Source: Escherichia coli (lineage in GTDB: Bacteria > Pseudomonadota > Gammaproteobacteria > Enterobacterales > Enterobacteriaceae). Taken from it: a stretch of DNA of 64,000 bases. Positions within the stretch are counted from its first letter, which is position 1. Each line of letters begins with the position of its first letter. Location: NCBI RefSeq assembly GCF_011045215.1, contig NZ_CP049201.1. The stretch is one strand, 5' to 3'. A model generated the notes under the pieces. It was given only the letters and a program-made list of their open reading frames with translations, had not been told where the DNA came from and searched no databases. Positions 32,261-64,000 of the stretch are shown one piece after another. Position numbers and translations under genes: made by a program.

Positions 32261-33160
32261 TCACTCCATCATCTTCTCAATCGGCAGGACCAGAATTGAA
32301 CTGGCACCCAGCGCTTTCAGTTTTTCCATCGTTTCCCAGAACAGGGTTTCACTGCTGACCATGTGCATCGCTACGCGCTGTTGGTCACCCGCCAGCGGCA
32401 GAATGGTTGGGCGTTCGGCACCTGGCAGCAGGGCGATGACTTCATCCAGACGTTCGGTCGGTGCGTGCATCATGATGTATTTTGATTCGCGCGCCTGAAT
32501 CACACCCTGAATACGGGTCAGCAGTTTGTCGATCAGTTGCTGTTTGGATTCTTCCATTTCGCCATCGCGTTGTATCAGGCAGGCTTTCGAGCGATAGATA
32601 ACTTCGACTTCGCGCAGGCCGTTAGCTTCCAGCGTGGCACCGGTGGAAACCAGATCGCAAATCGCATCCGCCAGTCCGGCACGCGGGGCGACTTCAACAG
32701 AACCGTTCAGTAAGCAGGATTTAAAACAGATACCTTTCTGGTCGAGATAACGCTTGAGCAGGTGAGGATAAGAGGTGGCGATACGTTTACCGTTTAAGGA
32801 GAGCGGGCCATCCCAGGCTTCATCAACCGGCGTTGCCAGTGAAAGTCGGCAGCCGCCGAAATCCAGACGACGCAGGGTAAAGTAGCGTGGATCTTCACCC
32901 TGGGCGCGGCGGTTAAGCAGCTCTTCTTCCAGCACGTTTTCGCCGATAATCCCGAGGTCAACCACGCCGTCCATTACCAGACCGGGAATGTCGTCGTCAC
33001 GCACGCGCAGAATATCAATCGGCATGTTTTCTGCCATCGCGATCAGGCGCTGGGTGTGAAGATTGATTTTAATGCCACAGCGCGCCAGCAATTCGCGTGA
33101 GTCATCACTTAAACGGCCGGATTTCTGCATAGCTATGCGTAAACGAGTGTTGTCTGTCAT
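32261..33160 (-). CDS. hisG: ATP phosphoribosyltransferase, 299 aa
   Basis: ORF 32261..33199; start at [18 protein letters not shown]. Confidence 0.93.
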
Positions 33161-53246: not shown

Positions 53247-54140
53247 AAAGCGGTAGAAAAAGTTAAGTTCCCGGTTGATCGAATGGATGCGAATCGCTGA
53301 TCGAACTTCGATGCCAATCCGTGATCGAATAGAGCGGAATACGCATTCTGCCATTACCCACAATGCGCGGTTGAGCTTAATATCGGTGTCGATGTTGTGA
53401 ATGGCACGGGTGTGGATACGTTTTCCTTTTGCACTGCGGCCGGAAATCCCGCCTTTCAGCATATTCTCCTGGATGGTCTGATAAGTACTCCACAGGTCCT
53501 TACCGTAATCCTCCCGGCGTCGTGGCGTCAGAATGTCGGCGGTGGTGACGGGCCGATGTTCGTCACCATAACGGTAAGTCAGTGCCGCCTGTGCCAGCGC
53601 CTGGCGTGCCGGTGGCGGCAGGACCAGCGACTGCATGGCATCACGCTTCTCCTCTATCCGGTCAAACACGCCCACCACCTCGTAAGCCCCTTCAATGACT
53701 CTGTCCACCACATTTCCCCGATGCGGAACACGCACTTCCCCCAGAGACTGACCACAGACGCATCCGTTCTGACAGACGAACCTGAAGTAACCCGGCAGCA
53801 TCTGGTAGCTGGAGGTACCGTCATGGGAGTTGAGCAGAATGATTTCAGGGACATGTTCTCCGTTTATCTCTCCGGCCCGCCGCAGACGCAGCATGTGTTT
53901 TGTGTATCCCCGGCGGCCCGGGTCGCGCACACGGGTCTGGCAGGCGAAGAATGGCTGAAAGCCTTCCCGCTGCAGGCTTTCCAGTACGGTGATGGTGGGG
54001 ATGTACGTATAGTTCTGGCTTCGGGACGTGTGTTTCTCTTCCCCGAAAATCCCCGGCACATAGTGCATCAGTTCTTCGTGTGTCAGCGGACGGTCACGGC
54101 GTATCTGGTTCGCATAACCAAAACGACTGGCTAGTCGCAT
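53169..54140 (-). pseudogene. DUF932 (YafZ/YfjQ-family) gene with 3' end replaced by IS21-family terminal sequence
   Basis: ORF 53169..54140; first about 260 codons look like YafZ family (MRLASRFG...KLNRAL); after about 53356 the reading frame runs into the IS end and continues as unrelated sequence. Confidence 0.7.
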
Positions 54141-54523: not shown

Positions 54524-54595
54524 TCAGAAAGTCACATTCAGCGTGGCCTGACCGTTATAACCTTCAGCGCTGCTGCCGCTGACGCTGTGGGCATA
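54524..54595 (-). pseudogene. flu: 3'-terminal remnant of an autotransporter gene, consistent with antigen 43 (flu)
   Basis: Minus strand encodes [23 protein letters not shown]-stop, a typical autotransporter beta-barrel C-terminus ending in Phe; upstream reading frame is unrelated. Confidence 0.6.
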
Positions 54596-54754
54596 CCGGC
54601 AGGTACAAAACAGCATGGTCAGATAAAGTGGTTTTTCCCGGACATAAATGCTTCCCCTCTCTCATCCGCCAGAGAAGTATCAGTCCGTTGTGTGCAATTC
54701 CGTTCTGCATGATGAAGAGATTCAGCTGCCTTTTCGCAGACCATTAACCACTAT

Positions 54755-54912: not shown

Positions 54913-55785
54913 TCAGAAGAAAATCCAGTTCCATACAGCGCGGGCAACAGAGACCACCGAGTCACGGACGGCACGCAGAACCGTGCGTGCAACAGAGGCA
55001 ATACAGACGCTCTCCGCCGTGTCAAATATCCGGTCCACCGCACCGGTAAACTGTTCACGGGCCTGAGACCGGACAGATTCCGTGCGCAGCTCGTCCTGCA
55101 GGCGGGTCATCAGGGGACTGGCGGCATGGTCGGGAAGCGCTGTCATGAGCGCACTGACCAGCATATCCAGTTCCCAGCCGGTGCAGGCCGATACGGCCAC
55201 AACCGGATGTACGGGCCGGAAGAGCCGGAATACCGCATCTGTTTTCTCACGAATGTTCTGTGCCTGTGCGGGAGAAGGCTGAATGCCGGCCATATCCCAT
55301 TCATGGCAGGGCTCCGTTTTGTCGGCCTGCGTCACCACAAACAGCACCTGCTGATGTCCCCGGTGCAGGATGTGTCGCCAGAAATACTCATCCACAGACA
55401 GGGCACGGTCATCGGCTTTAATCAGCCACAGTACCAGGTCAAGTTCAGGCAGAATGTCACGGTACAGGGCTTCATACTCTGCATCCCTGTCCCGGCTCTC
55501 GCCCACCCCGGGCAGGTCAGTGATAACCATGCTGTGACCGTGGCCACTCAGACGGAAGCGCTGCACTTCCCGGGTGCCGGCGTGAACATCACTGACCGGG
55601 GTGACCTCCCCCTGAAACAGTGCATTACAGAGTGAGGATTTACCGGCCCCGCTTTTACCCATAATGCCAATCACGGGTTCGTGACTGGTGAGTTTGCGCA
55701 GATGTTCCAGGATGTGACGGGAAAGTGAGTAAGGCAGGGAGGAGAGCGGTTTTTCAATTGCCTCAATGGCATCAGACGGATTCAT
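54913..55785 (-). CDS. yeeP: YeeP/YkfA/YfjP-family GTPase, 290 aa
   Basis: ORF 54913..55848; start at MNPSDAIEA; G1 motif GKSGAGKSS, G3 DLPG, G4 TQAD. Confidence 0.85.
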   Translation of the reverse strand: MNPSDAIEAIEKPLSSLPYSLSRHILEHLRKLTSHEPVIGIMGKSGAGKSSLCNALFQGEVTPVSDVHAGTREVQRFRLSGHGHSMVITDLPGVGESRDRDAEYEALYRDILPELDLVLWLIKADDRALSVDEYFWRHILHRGHQQVLFVVTQADKTEPCHEWDMAGIQPSPAQAQNIREKTDAVFRLFRPVHPVVAVSACTGWELDMLVSALMTALPDHAASPLMTRLQDELRTESVRSQAREQFTGAVDRIFDTAESVCIASVARTVLRAVRDSVVSVARAVWNWIFF

Positions 55786-55800
55786 ACATGTATTCCCGGT

Positions 55801-55842
55801 GAAAAAAGACAAAACCCCCGCACACCGGAAAGGTGGCGGGGG
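55801..55842 (-). terminator. Rho-independent terminator downstream of the frameshifted cargo gene
   Basis: Minus strand CCCCCGCCACC-TTTCC-GGTGTGCGGGGG followed by TTTTGTCTTTTTT; lies between stop at 55870 and GTPase start. Confidence 0.7.
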
Positions 55843-55869
55843 ACTCACGGAGATAATATATGTCTGAAA

Positions 55870-56788
55870 TTATCTGGAATGTCGGTACCTTTTATACTCT
55901 TCAACAATCAGGTCATGCAGCATTTCGCCGGTACTGAGTCTTCTGACCCTCGATAATTCTTTGAGCTGCGCCCTGGTTTCTGCGTCAAGAAAAAACTGTA
56001 CATTGACTTTATCTTCCTGCATTTTTTTGTACTTGCGCTGCGCCTTGGCCTTATTGAAACTGTTTCTGAAATTTTTTATATCGTCAGGTGAGGTGAGTGG
56101 ACAGGTAACCCATATGTCAAATGAAAGGTGAATTGCGTGGTAAATATCAGCAGAACCAGGAAAACTGGCCAGTTTTTCCAGTGCAATATTTTTTCCCTTC
56201 AAATAATTCCATGTCCATATGCATTCATGTTCGTTCTCCGGGAGGAGGTAACTGAAAGGACTCTTTGATTTAAATGCCCGCATCCATCTGTCTTTGGTCT
56301 GGATTATCCACTCATCCCGCAAATTCTTATCAGAAAGAATATCGAGAACTCTGAGTATTTGTCTGAACTGTGTCGATGAGTCCGACGGGAAGGCATTCCC
56401 TTCCAGATACTCTTCTTTAAGATACAGTTTATTCTTTTGAAGCAAGTCTGCGCTTATTTTTGCCCTGTTATTCTGGATAAACTGCATCAACAGATACCAG
56501 GAAAATAAGCATGCGCGTTCACTGCCCGCGATCCAGGATATTTTTTCCAGGGGGACCAGGAAGGCCAGGGCCTTCAGACGCATACCAGAAATTATTTGTT
56601 CAAGTTCAAAATCTGAAAGTGTGATGTTCAGATTTTCTCTGTTTTTTTTTTATGTAAGCGATAAAACGTTCCGGGGGATCATAAACATTAAGGGGCAGTA
56701 CGGAGATATTACGCTCTCCAAGATAATAAGAGTAATACGCATTTGTTCTTTCATTCATAACCTTATCCGACAAAATTTTCTGAACCAT
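55870..56788 (-). pseudogene. AT-rich uncharacterised gene split by a frameshift in an A10 tract; reconstructed product about 305 aa with C-terminal ribbon-helix-helix-like region
   Basis: ORFs 56606..56788 (60 aa) and 55870..56583 (237 aa) are on the same strand; the downstream frame stays open back to the A/T run at 56642..56651; removing one A fuses them; start ATG at 56788 has GGAGA upstream; C-terminus VNVQFFLDAETRAQLKELSRVRRLSTGEMLHDLIVEEYKRY has a beta-strand plus two-helix RHH pattern. Confidence 0.55.
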
Positions 56789-57988: not shown

Positions 57989-58606
57989 TCAGTTGCGGCT
58001 ATCGTCAACCGTTGTGCGGTATGCCAGGAGCACGTACTGATCCATCAGATCCGTCAGTGCTGCGCTCTGCCTCTGACGGTTGATGATCCATTCCTCCAGC
58101 TCTTTTTCTGATTTCCGTTTCAGGTTCTCTTTCCAGTCTTCAAGGCTGTTTCCGGTCATTAAATCAAGCCAGCAAAGCCAGACCAGTTTGAGGCGCAACT
58201 CCGTGCCACCAAACTGACGGAAGAGGCTGATCAGTTTATTTGCCAGAGAACGCTGCCTCAGACGTTCACATTCAGACAGGAGAATGCCTTCCAGCATCGG
58301 ATGATGAACCAGCAGATGTTCACTGGTGCATAAATTCACTATCAGATCATCATCCAGGGGCGGCGTGGCCCGTTTGTCAGGGCCATAAATCAGCCGGTGC
58401 AGGCTCTGGGGTACGATGGCAATCTCCGGTTTTTCACCATTGAATGACACCCAACCGGGCGTCAGATTATGGAAGTCGTAGATATTCGGATGACACACGC
58501 CCCAGGATACGGCGTGCCGGGTGAAGCCGGTCAGCCATTTCTGGTAGCTTTCGTGGAGCCATTCGTAGCGGGTCTGATACTGTTGTTTCATTTTCATATT
58601 CCTCAC
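57989..58606 (-). CDS. Uncharacterised protein, 205 aa, immediately downstream of the alpA-like gene
   Basis: ORF track; same strand and 80 bp from alpA-like stop; no recognisable motif. Confidence 0.5.
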   Translation of the reverse strand: MRNMKMKQQYQTRYEWLHESYQKWLTGFTRHAVSWGVCHPNIYDFHNLTPGWVSFNGEKPEIAIVPQSLHRLIYGPDKRATPPLDDDLIVNLCTSEHLLVHHPMLEGILLSECERLRQRSLANKLISLFRQFGGTELRLKLVWLCWLDLMTGNSLEDWKENLKRKSEKELEEWIINRQRQSAALTDLMDQYVLLAYRTTVDDSRN

Positions 58607-58685: not shown

Positions 58686-58892
58686 TTACGGGCGGGGCTG
58701 TGCAATACGCGCCTGCAGCCAGGCTTCCACTTCACTTTTCAGCCAGCGGGAGCTGCGGCCCAGCTTGATGGGAGCCGGAAAGGCCCCATCCCTGATGAGC
58801 CTGTAAAACCACTTATCTGTCAGGCCGGTCAGTTGAGTGATAAATGCCATGTCGACCATCTGGTCATCCATCAGTGAAACTGGGGTAGCCAT
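58686..58892 (-). CDS. alpA: AlpA-family prophage transcriptional regulator / excisionase-like protein, 68 aa
   Basis: C-terminal 68 codons of ORF 58686..59087 starting MATPVSLMDD after GGAGG; ITQLTGLTDKWFYRLIRDGAFPAPIKLGRSSRWLKSEVEAWL fits AlpA/Xis-like HTH pattern. Confidence 0.75.
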   Translation of the reverse strand: MATPVSLMDDQMVDMAFITQLTGLTDKWFYRLIRDGAFPAPIKLGRSSRWLKSEVEAWLQARIAQPRP

Positions 58893-59340
58893 GAGAATGT
58901 TCCTCCGGATGTTGTTAAACCAGCCGGTGTGGTCATGAAAACAGCGCGCCACCTTCACCGGCATAACAACCGGGGAGAAACGTAAAAAATAATCGGGAAT
59001 GTGACCGCCAGGAGATAAACGGGGAGGTTGCGGTGGCTGAGCCGTACCGGTATACCGGGTGGTTGTTGCGAAAAGATGCTTCCGCACGCACGCGCGATAA
59101 AGAGGGGATAGTTTTCGTGAGGACAGGGAGAGAAGCAGGCGTTCTGATAATTGCAGAGTTGTTTTCGGAGGTGGTTACAGTGAGTCAGCCCGTTCCTGGC
59201 GAGGAGGAGACTGATATCACCGATGGGATAAGGCTGTCTGATTGGTATTATAAATATAAGAAGTCATCAGAGAGTAACGTAAAGGATTTGCCAGAGTAAG
59301 CTAAGAGAGCAAATCTCTCCGGTAACAGAGCGCTGTGAAT

Positions 59341-59391
59341 CGTTCATGTATCAGAGTGCAGATACATGAACGCTGATGCGTAAAATCAGCA
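59341..59391. other. Two adjacent inverted repeats (perfect 12-bp stem CGTTCATGTATC/GATACATGAACG, then GCTGAT..ATCAGC)
   Basis: Seen directly; no U-tract; possible protein-binding palindrome; coordinates approximate. Confidence 0.4.
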
Positions 59392-59966
59392 GTGACACGC
59401 CAGCTCCCCCTGTGCCCATTCCTGTATAAGACATGAACTGAGCGTATTAATGCTCCTGCCCTGAGACTGAGCCGGTGAGTGAGGGGCTGAGAAATCCCTC
59501 TTGACACTGCTCTAAACCAGAAATACTTCCCCGGTTGTTGCGGTGCGTCCGGATCCCCGATAACGGAACACTAAGGCTGTATTGCGGGACACCTGGTAAG
59601 TGGCAGCCCGTAATACGTCAGGAGACGCGGGAAAAGTGAATTCCCACACGCGTTATAAACTTACCCTTGCGGAGCTGGAAGCCTTTAACTCTGCCGTTGA
59701 CAACCGGCTGGCAGAACTGACAATGAACAAACTTTACGATCGCGCGCCGGCTTCCGTCTGGAAATATGTCACCTGAATATTGAAGCAGCGCTACGATGAC
59801 TCCGGTGTTATCTGCACCGGAGGACCGGGAACATTAAGCGGTATAGCGACAACAAAGAATTCGAAATCAAAAGGGAATGGTGCCGGAGGCGTGGGCGGTA
59901 ATAGGCTGATTTTCAGGTATTACCGGCCTGTATCTGCTGAAGGGGGCTCGTATTTGTCGGGGCTGC

Positions 59967-60003: not shown

Positions 60004-60491
60004 CTAACTGTGATTGATTCAGGTACCATTTTGCAGGGATCCGGTGCGTTACTGTCTGGCACAACAAACGCAGCGGGTCGCTCTGCTCCGCCGATTCCTG
60101 ATAATCCCTCCCCAGTAACCTACTGCAACAGTACAAATACACTGACGCCTGAAACGGTAACCAGAATCAGCACCAGCAGTAACTCAGTAAACAGAGCAGA
60201 CGATCGGTCTTCCGGTAATAACCGGAAGGAACGACAGCGCCACAATACAGGCAACACACTGTATTATGAGTAATCGAATTACCGCAATCCCCGCATTTCT
60301 TTTTGCGTATCACGATAGCTCCCTCGCCACGCCTTATCCGTAACCGGTTTTTTACATTAAAAAAAACAACGCCGGGAATTCAATCGTCAGTCCGGAGACG
60401 ACCGTTCGGGTTATCACAGAGAGCCTGAGCAGGGGGGCTGCGCATTTTTTACGATGTGGCTATTCCGTATGAACCATACGGAGATATAACC

Positions 60492-61061
60492 ATGACCTAC
60501 AAATACAACCCCTTCTGGCAGCAACGTATTCGTGAGACGGTGCGGCACGCACTGAATGTTCATCCCCGCCTGACGGCATTGCGGGTTGACCTGCGTTTCC
60601 CGGATGTACCGGCAGCAACGGACGCAGCTGTGATATCCCGCTTCATCAATGCCCTGAAAGCCCGAATCGACGCTTACCAGAAACGTAAGCATCGGGAAGG
60701 TAAACGCGTGCATTCCACAACCCTGCATTACGTCTGGGCCCGGGAGTTTGGGGAGTGCAAAGGTAAAAAACACTATCACCTGATGCTGCTGGTCAACCGG
60801 GATACCTGGTGTCGTGCCGGTGATTACCGCGCTCCGGGATCACTGGCCGGGATGATTAAACAGGCGTGGTGCAGTGCCCTGGGAGTGGATGTCGGGTGCC
60901 ATGCCACGCTGGTGCATTTTCCGGCCTGGCCGGCGGTGTGGCTGGCGCGTAATGATGACACCGGCTTTCAGCAAGTGCTGGAACGTGCTGACTATCTGGC
61001 GAAGGAGCATACCAAAGTTCACTGCACCGGTGAGCGCAACTTTGGCTGCAGTCGTGGCTGA
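60492..61061 (+). CDS. Inovirus Gp2-like / YagK-YfjJ-family protein, 189 aa
   Basis: ORF 60456..61061; start at ATG 60492 after GGAGA; KKHYHLMLLVNRD segment recalled from YagK/YfjJ-type proteins; family assignment from memory. Confidence 0.5.
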   Translation: MTYKYNPFWQQRIRETVRHALNVHPRLTALRVDLRFPDVPAATDAAVISRFINALKARIDAYQKRKHREGKRVHSTTLHYVWAREFGECKGKKHYHLMLLVNRDTWCRAGDYRAPGSLAGMIKQAWCSALGVDVGCHATLVHFPAWPAVWLARNDDTGFQQVLERADYLAKEHTKVHCTGERNFGCSRG

Positions 61062-61226: not shown

Positions 61227-61619
61227 ATGTACGCAAAATCCTTTCTCGCTCTTGATGGCAACGGACGTCTGACGGGCGCCCGTACAGCACAGGCCGCACC
61301 TTATGCTCACTACACCTGCCACTTGTGTGGCAGTGCACTCAGATACCATCCGCAATACGACACTGAACTTCCCTGGTTTGAACACACTGACGACAGGCTG
61401 ACAGAGCACGGTCAACAGTGCCCTTATGTCAGGCCGGAGCGCAGAGAAATACAGTTGATTAAACGTCTGCAGCAATTCGTACCGGATGCCTTACCCGTGG
61501 TGCGTAAAGCCAGCTGGCACTGCAGACAATGTCACCACGATTATTATGGGGAGCGGTACTGCACACACTGCCAGACCGGAGGTTTCAGTCTTCCCCGGAC
61601 AGCTCAGCAACTGTCTTGA
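61227..61619 (+). CDS. Cys-rich double zinc-ribbon protein, 130 aa (paralog A)
   Basis: ORF track; CHLCGS...PWFEH then WHCRQCHHDYYGERYCTHCQTG; paralogous to 62783..63193. Confidence 0.55.
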   Translation: MYAKSFLALDGNGRLTGARTAQAAPYAHYTCHLCGSALRYHPQYDTELPWFEHTDDRLTEHGQQCPYVRPERREIQLIKRLQQFVPDALPVVRKASWHCRQCHHDYYGERYCTHCQTGGFSLPRTAQQLS

Positions 61620-61628
61620 ACGTAAAAA

Positions 61629-62597
<969 letters not shown>

Positions 62598-62782: not shown

Positions 62783-63193
62783 ATGCGAATTCTGAACTGC
62801 TATATGGCGAATGACAGCAAAGGCCATTTTGTTACGGCGAAAGAAGCCGCGAAGCACAACCGACAGGACGTTTTGTGCTGTGTGTCCTGTGGTTGTCCGT
62901 TAACACTTAAGCGGGGAAATGACGGACAACCGCCGTGGTTTGAACATGACCAGATGACTGTTGCTGCGAAAATCCTGCTGCGATGCACCTGGCTTGACCC
63001 GGCAGAGAAAGAGGCCCGTCGTTTGCATCTGCAGGGCATGACGGTTCCGGATTATACGGTGAAGGTGAGAAAGTGGTTTTGTGTGATGTGTGACGAAGAT
63101 TATGAGGGGGAAAAGTGCTGCCCGCGTTGTGGTACTGGGGTATACAGCAGGGAGGGGGGGCTGCAGGAAGGCAACTGGAAGGATAGGAACTGA
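62783..63193 (+). CDS. Cys-rich double zinc-ribbon protein, 136 aa (paralog B)
   Basis: ORF track; CCVSCGCPL...PWFEH then WFCVMCDEDYEGEKCCPRCGTG; same architecture as paralog A. Confidence 0.55.
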   Translation: MRILNCYMANDSKGHFVTAKEAAKHNRQDVLCCVSCGCPLTLKRGNDGQPPWFEHDQMTVAAKILLRCTWLDPAEKEARRLHLQGMTVPDYTVKVRKWFCVMCDEDYEGEKCCPRCGTGVYSREGGLQEGNWKDRN

Positions 63194-63476: not shown

Positions 63477-64000
63477 ATGGGCAACCCAATGCACTCTCTT
63501 AAGACACTTCTACAGTTACCTTGCGGATGGCGATGCAGTCGACAAATTATTAGCTCTGACGGTATAACCCTCCATCTCCACGGAAAACGCAAAACAGCAC
63601 AATGTCCTGAATGCTTTAAGCGTAGCGACTCTGTTCATAGTTGTTGTCGGCGCCGGATACAGCATCTACCCTGATCAGGACAGACGCTATAGCTTGTATT
63701 TTCCGTCCGCCACTGGTACTGCCGTAACCCAGCTTGTTCACGTAAAATTTTTGCCGAGTCGCTTGCTCCCTTCGCCGGTTCACACCAACAGTCTTCACAG
63801 GCGTTACAAAATTTACAACGTCAACTGGGATTAATAGCTGGAGGTGAGGCTGGAAAACGGGCTGCAACGGCAGCGGGTCTCCGTTGCAGTGCTGATACTC
63901 TTCTTCGCAGGGTTATCAATACCCCGGAGACGAAACAGTCAGGCGCGCCTCATGTCGGTATTGATGAGTGGGCGTGGCATCGGGGCCACTGCTGCGGTAT
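63477..64000 (+). pseudogene. ISL3-family transposase, frameshifted, continues past window end
   Basis: ORF 63477..63674 has an ISL3-type N-terminal zinc finger (CPECFKRSDSVHSCCRRRIQHLP); a second frame from about 63696 reads RNPACSRKIFAES...VGIDEWAWHRGH, typical ISL3 transposase motifs. Confidence 0.6.

Follow-up and report, generated by a model that had tools for sequence, protein, structure and literature searches.

The Gp2-like gene described here lies in a variant of the Escherichia coli cryptic prophage CP4-44, and its product is a predicted single-domain HUH (Rep-like) nickase of the YagK/YfjJ family. The explanation that best accounts for all of the observations, to which we give a probability of about 0.75, is that the locus is a CP4-44 remnant in which this Rep-like enzyme has been stranded and in which its translation is held down by a hairpin in the gene's leader. 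The identity of the gene and of its locus is the part of this explanation that we hold with high confidence; the part that concerns mechanism, in which nicking would lead to replication or transfer of an excised island, we rate at somewhat under an even chance. All positions refer to the window, by which we mean the whole 64,000-nucleotide stretch of E. coli contig NZ_CP049201.1 that was analysed, and the features in it are collected in Table 1.

Table 1. Features of the island and its left border in the 64,000-nucleotide window
Feature	Position	Strand	Basis and remarks
Chromosomal backbone	up to about 44.4 kb		mapping onto relatives
EutP/PduV remnant	43980-44345	-	island boundary by tmaR; coordinates transferred from NCTC9008
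IS100	44.4-46.2 kb		mapping onto relatives
IS110 remnant	46.3-47.3 kb		mapping onto relatives
yee toxin-antitoxin, RadC-like and antirestriction genes, with 3' end of DUF932 gene	47.5-50.7 kb		
IS21-family element	50774-53349		inserted near 3' end of DUF932 gene
GTPase-to-ISL3 segment	54.6-64 kb		mapping onto relatives
YeeP/YfjP-type GTPase gene	54913-55848	-	NCBIfam GTPase matches; annotation of relatives
305-aa hypothetical gene	55871-56788	-	next to GTPase gene; frameshifted
Conserved 205-aa hypothetical gene	57989-58606	-	ORF; downstream of alpA, same strand
alpA/Vis-type helix-turn-helix gene	58686-58892	-	68 aa; PF05930 E=4.9e-9; HTH_17
Conserved DNA upstream of alpA (about 400 bp)	58893-59300		alignment of copies
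Hha/YmoA-family gene	59600-59776	+	PF05321 E=1.5e-17; NCBIfam Hha E=2.5e-18
Small zinc-ribbon ORF	60120-60316	-	frameshifted allele; between hha and Gp2-like gene
Leader with conserved hairpin	60456-60491 (stem about 60465-60481)	+	folds; 15-sequence alignment
Gp2-like YagK/YfjJ gene	60492-61061	+	570 nt, 189 aa, intact; PF11726 match
Zinc-ribbon paralogue 1 (DUF7828+Zn_ribbon_11)	61227-61619	+	PF25165 E=4e-31; PF11682 E=3e-9
IS110-family transposase gene	61629-62597	-	PF01548, PF02371; between zinc-ribbon genes
Zinc-ribbon paralogue 2 (DUF7828+Zn_ribbon_11)	62783-63193	+	PF25165 E=2e-30; PF11682 E=6e-18
ISL3-family transposase pseudogene	63477-64000	+	runs off window end; stop codons in window copy

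Where in the chromosome does this DNA lie? Megablast matches the 56-64 kb part of the window to E. coli chromosomes at 99.9% identity, with 80% or more of it covered in 341 genomes. Mapping was done onto YD786 and NCTC9008, the two closest complete genomes (YD786 is 99.7-99.9% identical to the last 9.4 kb of the window), and what is said below of the DNA past 64 kb is drawn from these near-identical relatives. In both of them the left flank of the island runs from the his operon to sbcB-dacD-sbmC-yeeA-tmaR and then to a EutP/PduV remnant, the position of which is occupied by yoeF in K-12, and the right flank consists of a cobalamin-biosynthesis (cbi) remnant followed by cobU-cobS-cobT-ldtA-tRNA-Asn. 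In a related locus (L001) the cbi remnant on the opposite side of the island lies at 32782-32943. Salmonella carries its pdu-cbi region at the corresponding place. Because the island is bracketed by PduV/EutP and cbi remnants, it occupies the place of the pdu-cbi region and not a tRNA site. The locus is thus a variant of CP4-44, and the Gp2-like gene sits in the integrase-proximal part of that prophage, a part that has been lost from K-12.

Two operons diverge within the island. The rightward one contains hha, the Gp2-like gene and the two larger zinc-ribbon genes, and the leftward one contains alpA, the 205-aa gene, the YeeP GTPase gene, the DUF932 gene, the antirestriction gene, the RadC-like gene and CbtA/CbeA. 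IS elements are scattered across the island (IS100, IS110 twice, an IS21-family element and ISL3). The IS21-family element is 96.5% identical to one at a different spot in NCTC9008, and as a result of its insertion a DUF932 ORF (53169-54140) reads into it. At about 54586-54600 the Ag43 (flu) gene, which is 2.8 kb in YD786, has been deleted from the window at a junction with the microhomology ATACCGGC, and because of this deletion the GTPase and DUF905/DUF932 regions abut.

The original prediction held that no integrase is visible, that the integrase and attachment site are either beyond the window or lost, and that the island may therefore be immobilised. The first of these statements is borne out: tblastn with K-12 IntA gave no match at E<=10 in the window, the YD786 locus or the NCTC9008 locus, the last two of which extend past the window end by 20 kb and 10 kb, respectively, and a profile HMM built from 19 P4-type integrases of related loci (control, K-12 IntA at 1e-163) found nothing better than E=0.71 among six-frame segments of at least 30 aa from the window and both relatives. 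No integrase is annotated in the YD786 or NCTC9008 loci. Past the window end these relatives contain the ISL3 pseudogene, fragments of ggt and of a phosphotriesterase gene, IS3, an IS4 fragment, the cbi remnant, cobUST and ldtA, and NCTC9008 also carries DMT transporter, amidotransferase and PfkB kinase genes there. ARAGORN found no tRNA in the 64-kb window; in the relatives core genes intervene between the island and the first tRNA-Asn, about 8.5 kb past the window end. Sequence matching the 3' end of tRNA-Asn is missing from the window, and in YD786 it is confined to the three tRNA genes themselves. Attachment repeats derived from tRNA-Asn were considered and rejected, as there are none in the window or YD786. 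Thus the check for an integrase and a tRNA or att site beyond 64 kb, run on YD786 and NCTC9008, found none adjoining the island, and of the two fates that had been offered for the integrase, loss is by far the likelier.

Of the features that mark a P4-type island, the AlpA/Vis-type regulator and the yee/yfj/ykf gene set are present here. An integrase at the island's end is absent from the window and from the 10-20 kb beyond it in relatives, and the island is not inserted at the 3' end of a tRNA or tmRNA gene with direct repeats, its flanks being the pduV and cbi remnants. Might an intact integrase and attachment site nonetheless follow directly after the window, which would make the island an ordinary P4-type element, able to move? 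The window stops within the ISL3 element, and the best genome match over 24 kb covers 99% of that DNA at 98.2% identity or 89% of it at 99.4%, which leaves this idea some room. Against it, YD786 and NCTC9008 have no integrase and the core cobUST-ldtA genes precede any tRNA, the integrase profile is blank over the 10-20 kb past the end, the layout from the zinc-ribbon genes to cobU is common to 538 genomes, with no integrase among the feature names listed for those sampled, and the tRNA-Asn repeat is missing. We regard it as very improbable and as already largely refuted. The combination of no integrase, no att repeats and many IS elements indicates a fixed remnant, and on its sequence the island is very probably immobile, as had been suggested. 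The integrase-less and probably immobilised state of CP4-44 is already known: Wang et al. (2010) describe it as an element that 'lacks an integrase', and saw no excision of it (PMC3105296).

The Gp2-like gene was described in the original prediction as oriented opposite to alpA and accompanied by zinc-ribbon paralogues and IS elements, and this is indeed the case: the two genes diverge and are 1.6 kb apart, and both zinc-ribbon paralogues, IS110 and the ISL3 pseudogene are found nearby. The interpretation attached to it, that alpA normally sits next to a P4-type integrase and that these genes are there in its stead, does not agree with the wider distribution of the module. The 3-kb block with alpA on the minus strand and the hypothetical, hha, Gp2-like and zinc-ribbon genes on the plus strand is colinear in 2587 of 5426 complete E. 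coli genomes (counted at 80% coverage or more), at a median of 2 and a maximum of 8 places per genome, so these genes are regular partners of alpA. Copies next to the fec operon (strains 08_3449 and EC4) and next to a gentisate-degradation cluster (O145:H28 RM13514) keep the divergent layout, and there is no integrase within 9 kb of them.

Outside E. coli we examined 62 loci from other species, found in a search with a 12-sequence alignment and each with at least 5 kb on both sides of the Gp2-like gene. An AlpA-type gene is present within 2 kb in 68% of these (61% co-oriented with the Gp2-like gene, 6% opposite), and a P4-type integrase is within 2 kb in just 5%, within 5 kb in 11% and within 10 kb in 44%. 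A divergent DUF932 gene lies upstream of the Gp2-like gene in 55% of the same loci. In Rouxiella, Klebsiella, Serratia, Cedecea, Pectobacterium, Edwardsiella and Enterobacter the genes form a Gp2-AlpA(-zinc ribbon) operon, and in Salmonella AlpA is about 0.7 kb further downstream, past two small ORFs. The cargo that follows the Gp2-AlpA operon in other genera is variable and often consists of defence genes; defence-like examples (loci L089, L091, L095 and L097) include an OLD-family ATPase with a UvrD helicase, an N6/N4 methyltransferase with a ResIII helicase, and AAA_15/AAA_21 ATPases. A study of Pseudomonas islands counts the Gp2-like gene, along with intY, alpA and RadC, among the probable core functions, and orf38-41 of the SRL pathogenicity island of Shigella flexneri are the same gene string, in which orf41 is called Vis/AlpA and orf39 YfjJ-like (PMC6980539). 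Because the AlpA-Gp2 linkage is conserved in E. coli and in other species, the opposite orientation seen in the window reads as the E. coli version of a conserved partnership and not as a rearrangement around a lost integrase.

The alpA-type gene of the window is identical to the YD786 copy, and its protein matches the PHROG 'excisionase and transcriptional regulator' at E=1.4e-10. Conservation is high across the approximately 400 bp upstream of it and extends to the O145 copy, which is otherwise divergent. An 88-aa ORF (59033-59299) overlaps that region; in other copies it carries indels whose lengths are not divisible by three, so this is probably regulatory or cis-acting DNA that does not code for a protein. 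Between alpA and hha there is a perfect 12-bp inverted repeat at 59341-59372 (CGTTCATGTATC-N8-GATACATGAACG); we considered it as an origin or operator and set it aside, as it is kept in close copies and absent from O145 and hence is not a conserved feature of the module. A promoter and terminator scan of 58.6-61.7 kb gave no enrichment over shuffled sequences, and Rfam found nothing credible in 44-64 kb (a sub-threshold MicL match had E=0.033).

The hha gene lies upstream of the Gp2-like gene on the same strand. The small zinc-ribbon ORF that separates them is marked 'frameshifted' by PGAP in YD786 and 08_3449 and is intact (66 aa) in EC4, NCTC9008 and O145; E. coli copies carry two very divergent alleles of it. 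Directly downstream of the Gp2-like gene, zinc-ribbon paralogue 1 is a partner that has been kept in E. coli and in other genera, and in copies without IS110 the two paralogues overlap each other. The IS110 copy between them is probably dead, as a T/A difference at 62119 creates a stop codon in the window that is not in the intact YD786 gene. The ISL3 pseudogene is likewise annotated 'frameshifted; internal stop' in YD786 and NCTC9008. On the other side of alpA, the 205-aa gene is annotated in all E. coli copies and has no family match in Pfam, NCBIfam or PHROGs; the 305-aa gene, itself conserved and in an AT-rich region (40-42% GC), has a frameshifting 1-nt insertion at 56642 relative to YD786. 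The GTPase gene opens the conserved yee module, which runs leftward through DUF932, antirestriction, RadC-like and CbeA/CbtA genes.

The six-frame ORF list gives the Gp2-like gene as a 201-aa ORF (60456-61061, plus strand) with an internal ATG at 60492. We use the latter start, which is that of PGAP's 570-nt version in genomes 99.9% identical to the window and is backed by alignment with 55 homologues. The protein matches PF11726 (YagK_YfjJ_C) over its full length, profile positions 1-170 of 170, at E=6.2e-48 and 163.4 bits (gathering cut-off 25.8), and is thus a member of that family, which comprises 694 representative clusters at E<=1e-3. It is a paralogue of YfjJ and YagK. The copy in the window differs from the common allele by a single residue change, P75S, and the gene is, judged by its substitution ratios, under purifying selection (dN/dS of 0.22-0.28 between E. 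coli paralogues and of 0.12-0.15 against Hafnia and Kosakonia). No NCBIfam model fits the Gp2-like, zinc-ribbon or hypothetical proteins; among PHROGs the Gp2-like protein matches a family of unknown function at E=2e-39 and, faintly, 'replication initiation protein' entries.

PGAP names the YagK/YfjJ-type protein of the relatives 'inovirus Gp2 family protein', and the original prediction carried the same label. We find the word 'inovirus' misleading. Only 1 of 50,697 phage records was matched by tblastn with the Gp2-like protein, and that one is not an inovirus. It is OR844780.1 (Escherichia phage ECO111 5-P), an unannotated E. coli entry of 4468 bp with 91.5% protein identity, probably an island fragment deposited as phage. 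The match to PF23343 (REP_ORF2-G2P) is weak (E=1.9e-5, 25.3 bits) and below the cut-off of 27.8, and with no inovirus among the tblastn matches we reject the identification as a true filamentous-phage gene II protein. A plasmid Rep protein is rejected as well: the YagK/YfjJ family is found on just 67 of 72,556 plasmids, all of them large or misassigned. The one small 'plasmid', pIndS102_4 (11.7 kb), was discounted because it is a linear contig on which chromosomal genes accompany an integrase, AlpA and two Gp2 genes. Since the family is almost absent from phages and rare on plasmids, it is not a routine replicon initiator.

The evidence that the Gp2-like protein is a nickase comes from its conserved residues and its predicted fold. 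In an alignment of 56 sequences (33-68% identity to the query) E85, H94, H96, W126, Y168 and K171 are invariant, and R31, D33 and K175 recur in 90% or more of the sequences. All three motifs of HUH/Rep endonucleases can be recognised: motif I is RVDLR; motif II is HYH followed by hydrophobic residues (H94-Y-H96-LMLLV), so that both histidines and the hydrophobic spacer are in place with E85 as upstream acidic ligand; and motif III is YLAKxxTK, with a single catalytic tyrosine (Y168, K171) in a YxxK motif on a helix near the C-terminus. In an AlphaFold2 model (mean pLDDT 95, pTM 0.90) E85 and the HUH motif are on predicted strands 79-86 and 93-102, and Y168 is at the end of helix 156-170. Foldseek comparison of this model with predicted viral structures gave 144 matches at E<=1e-3, with Microviridae replication initiators/VP4 (E=6e-6) at the head of those that carry a name; matches to the PDB are weak (best E=3.5e-3, TM about 0.28) and point in the same direction, so the predicted fold is that of an HUH nuclease. 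Searches of PDB sequences with the single protein and with a profile gave no match, and among the papers retrieved for YfjJ, YagK and 'inovirus Gp2' we found no experiment that shows nicking, replication or transfer. Motifs and modelled fold together place the protein in the HUH superfamily.

The leader of the Gp2-like gene has the layout TTTTTTAC-N12-CCGTATG-AAC-CATACGG-AG-N8-ATG, in which the conserved TTTTTTAC precedes a hairpin whose 3' arm overlaps the Shine-Dalgarno sequence GGAG. In the O145 copy the stem is retained around a longer loop; in other genera it takes the form CCGGT...ACCGG or CCAGT...ACTGG, with a loop that keeps TATGAA(C), and in Edwardsiella the 5' arm is altered to pair with a different Shine-Dalgarno sequence. 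Across 15 enterobacterial sequences 88% of the cells of the outer helix are paired (slid controls, 21-44%), 3 of its 5 pairs show compensatory changes, and 0 of 500 shuffles reached its covariation score. Because the hairpin always includes the Shine-Dalgarno sequence it fits RNA-level control better than an origin, and its most economical reading is that it probably masks that sequence from ribosomes. Could it instead be a DNA nick site, the origin on which the HUH enzyme acts, and not a translational control element of the mRNA? CRESS-DNA viruses and rolling-circle plasmids have an origin hairpin just upstream of rep, a position like the one seen here, and the stem covaries around a loop that holds TATGAA(C), more conserved sequence than a simple masking hairpin would need. 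On the other hand, the Shine-Dalgarno sequence is always the 3' arm, the Edwardsiella 5' arm that tracks a different one is the signature of translational masking, and the E. coli loop is just 3 nt. A DNA target of the enzyme is a possible reading of the hairpin and less likely than masking of the Shine-Dalgarno sequence; that it serves as the origin to the exclusion of translational control we think unlikely.

What, then, might such an enzyme do? In mobile relatives of the island, the Gp2-like protein would nick one DNA strand at a specific site, and the 5' end of the nicked strand would become bound to Tyr168. From that nick the excised circle would be replicated in rolling-circle fashion or transferred as a single strand. 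Excision and expression would both be under the control of the AlpA-type protein, and the partners of the enzyme would be the DUF3987 (YfjI) protein, which is a neighbour in some relatives including CP4-57, or the DUF7828 zinc-ribbon proteins, which are neighbours in others including E. coli. Translation of the Gp2-like gene would probably be held down by the leader hairpin where it covers the ribosome-binding site. At the locus in the window the island cannot excise, and the enzyme would thus be stranded there. The most inclusive form of this proposal, that YagK/YfjJ proteins are active nickases, that with AlpA and the DUF7828 zinc-ribbon or DUF3987 proteins they make up the self-replication or transfer core of CP4-type islands, and that the upstream hairpin is the nick site, we consider doubtful.

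The same enzyme might be a relaxase and not a replication initiator. It would then nick an oriT in the divergent intergenic region, a helper conjugative system would move the island as single-stranded DNA, and the operon from alpA to the antirestriction gene would enter first as a 'leading region'. That leftward operon does hold antirestriction, DUF932 and RadC-like genes, which are of the types found in plasmid leading regions, and the E. coli module has no helicase or primase gene next to the Gp2-like gene. There are integrative elements whose relaxases are Rep-like HUH proteins, those of the MOBT family (PMC6499999, PMC9371924). However, no oriT or coupling-protein partner was identified, the nearest structural relatives of the model are viral and plasmid replication initiators, and 19% of the 62 loci have a DUF3987/YfjI gene no more than 2 kb from the Gp2-like gene. 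We take DUF3987/YfjI to be a helicase-like family, which would fit replication. A relaxase is in our estimation an improbable answer.

A third possibility is that the Gp2-like protein has been domesticated as a DNA-binding or defence-related host factor that no longer acts on island DNA. This would explain why the gene is intact, and why purifying selection persists, in an island that does not move; defence genes (OLD/UvrD, methyltransferase with ResIII) are often its neighbours in relatives, and modulators of the Hha silencing type lie beside it. Yet every catalytic residue is invariant in 56 diverse homologues, which argues for retained nuclease chemistry, and the tight linkage to AlpA-type excision regulators points to mobile-element housekeeping. 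We judge domestication to be quite unlikely, and keep as the preferred reading a Rep-like nickase stranded in a CP4-44 remnant.

In itself the finding is ordinary: as a cryptic island CP4-44 is textbook material, annotation of the gene is routine, and the alpA arrangement is the norm in thousands of genomes. What is gained is a sharper view of a very common and little-studied family of island genes, YagK/YfjJ, in which all Rep-type catalytic residues are kept, the tight linkage is with AlpA-type genes and not with integrases, and the leader hairpin is conserved. If nicking is true, it would provide a mechanism for the post-excision replication or mobilisation of CP4/PAI-type islands, whose cargo in enterobacteria includes adhesins, toxin-antitoxin pairs and defence genes. 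If, further, these proteins do form a replication or transfer core, this would explain how islands without recognisable phage or conjugation genes amplify or move after excision, and the CP4-type islands concerned are widespread in Gammaproteobacteria.

Among known enzymes, the HUH rolling-circle initiators with which we compared the Gp2-like protein (Microviridae VP4/gpA, the nuclease domain of parvovirus NS1/Rep, RepB of pMV158 and SIRV1 ORF119) share with it the fold and the motif order E...HUH...YxxK. It differs from them in having no detectable PDB-level sequence similarity and in being encoded in chromosomal islands rather than by viruses or plasmids. It is also a single domain, without a helicase or oligomerisation domain, and has one tyrosine; initiators of the phiX174 type have two. 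The filamentous-phage gene II protein resembles it in that both are presumably HUH-type nickases, in keeping with the weak PF23343 match, but no filamentous-phage genes lie near the Gp2-like gene.

Among known islands, CP4-57 and CP4-6 encode YfjJ and YagK, which like the gene studied here are island-borne, alpA-linked members of the PF11726 family; YfjJ of CP4-57 is 36% identical to the window protein over 197 residues. The gene order of CP4-57 is intA-yfjH-alpA-yfjI-yfjJ, with alpA, yfjI and yfjJ on the intA strand next to the integrase and ssrA, whereas in the window an integrase is lacking, alpA diverges from the Gp2-like gene, and the place of yfjI is taken by hha and zinc-ribbon genes. 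The SRL island has its integrase at a tRNA gene, excises and carries resistance cargo. Its orf38-orf47 resemble the window in reading hypothetical (in the zinc-ribbon position), YfjJ-like, Hha, Vis/AlpA, hypotheticals, YeeP and Ag43 (PMC6980539), and as its ORFs are numbered from orf1 this module lies tens of ORFs into the island. The closest system is CP4-44 of K-12 itself, which shares with the window the cobU flank on one side and the yoeF/pduV remnant and yeeX/tmaR flank on the other, the yee module (YeeP, YeeS, YeeT, CbeA, CbtA) and the lack of an integrase. In K-12 the alpA-hha-Gp2-zinc-ribbon end has been replaced by IS5, yoeG/H, yoeA and IS2, whereas the window has kept its alpA/Gp2 end, has lost Ag43 and has acquired other IS insertions.
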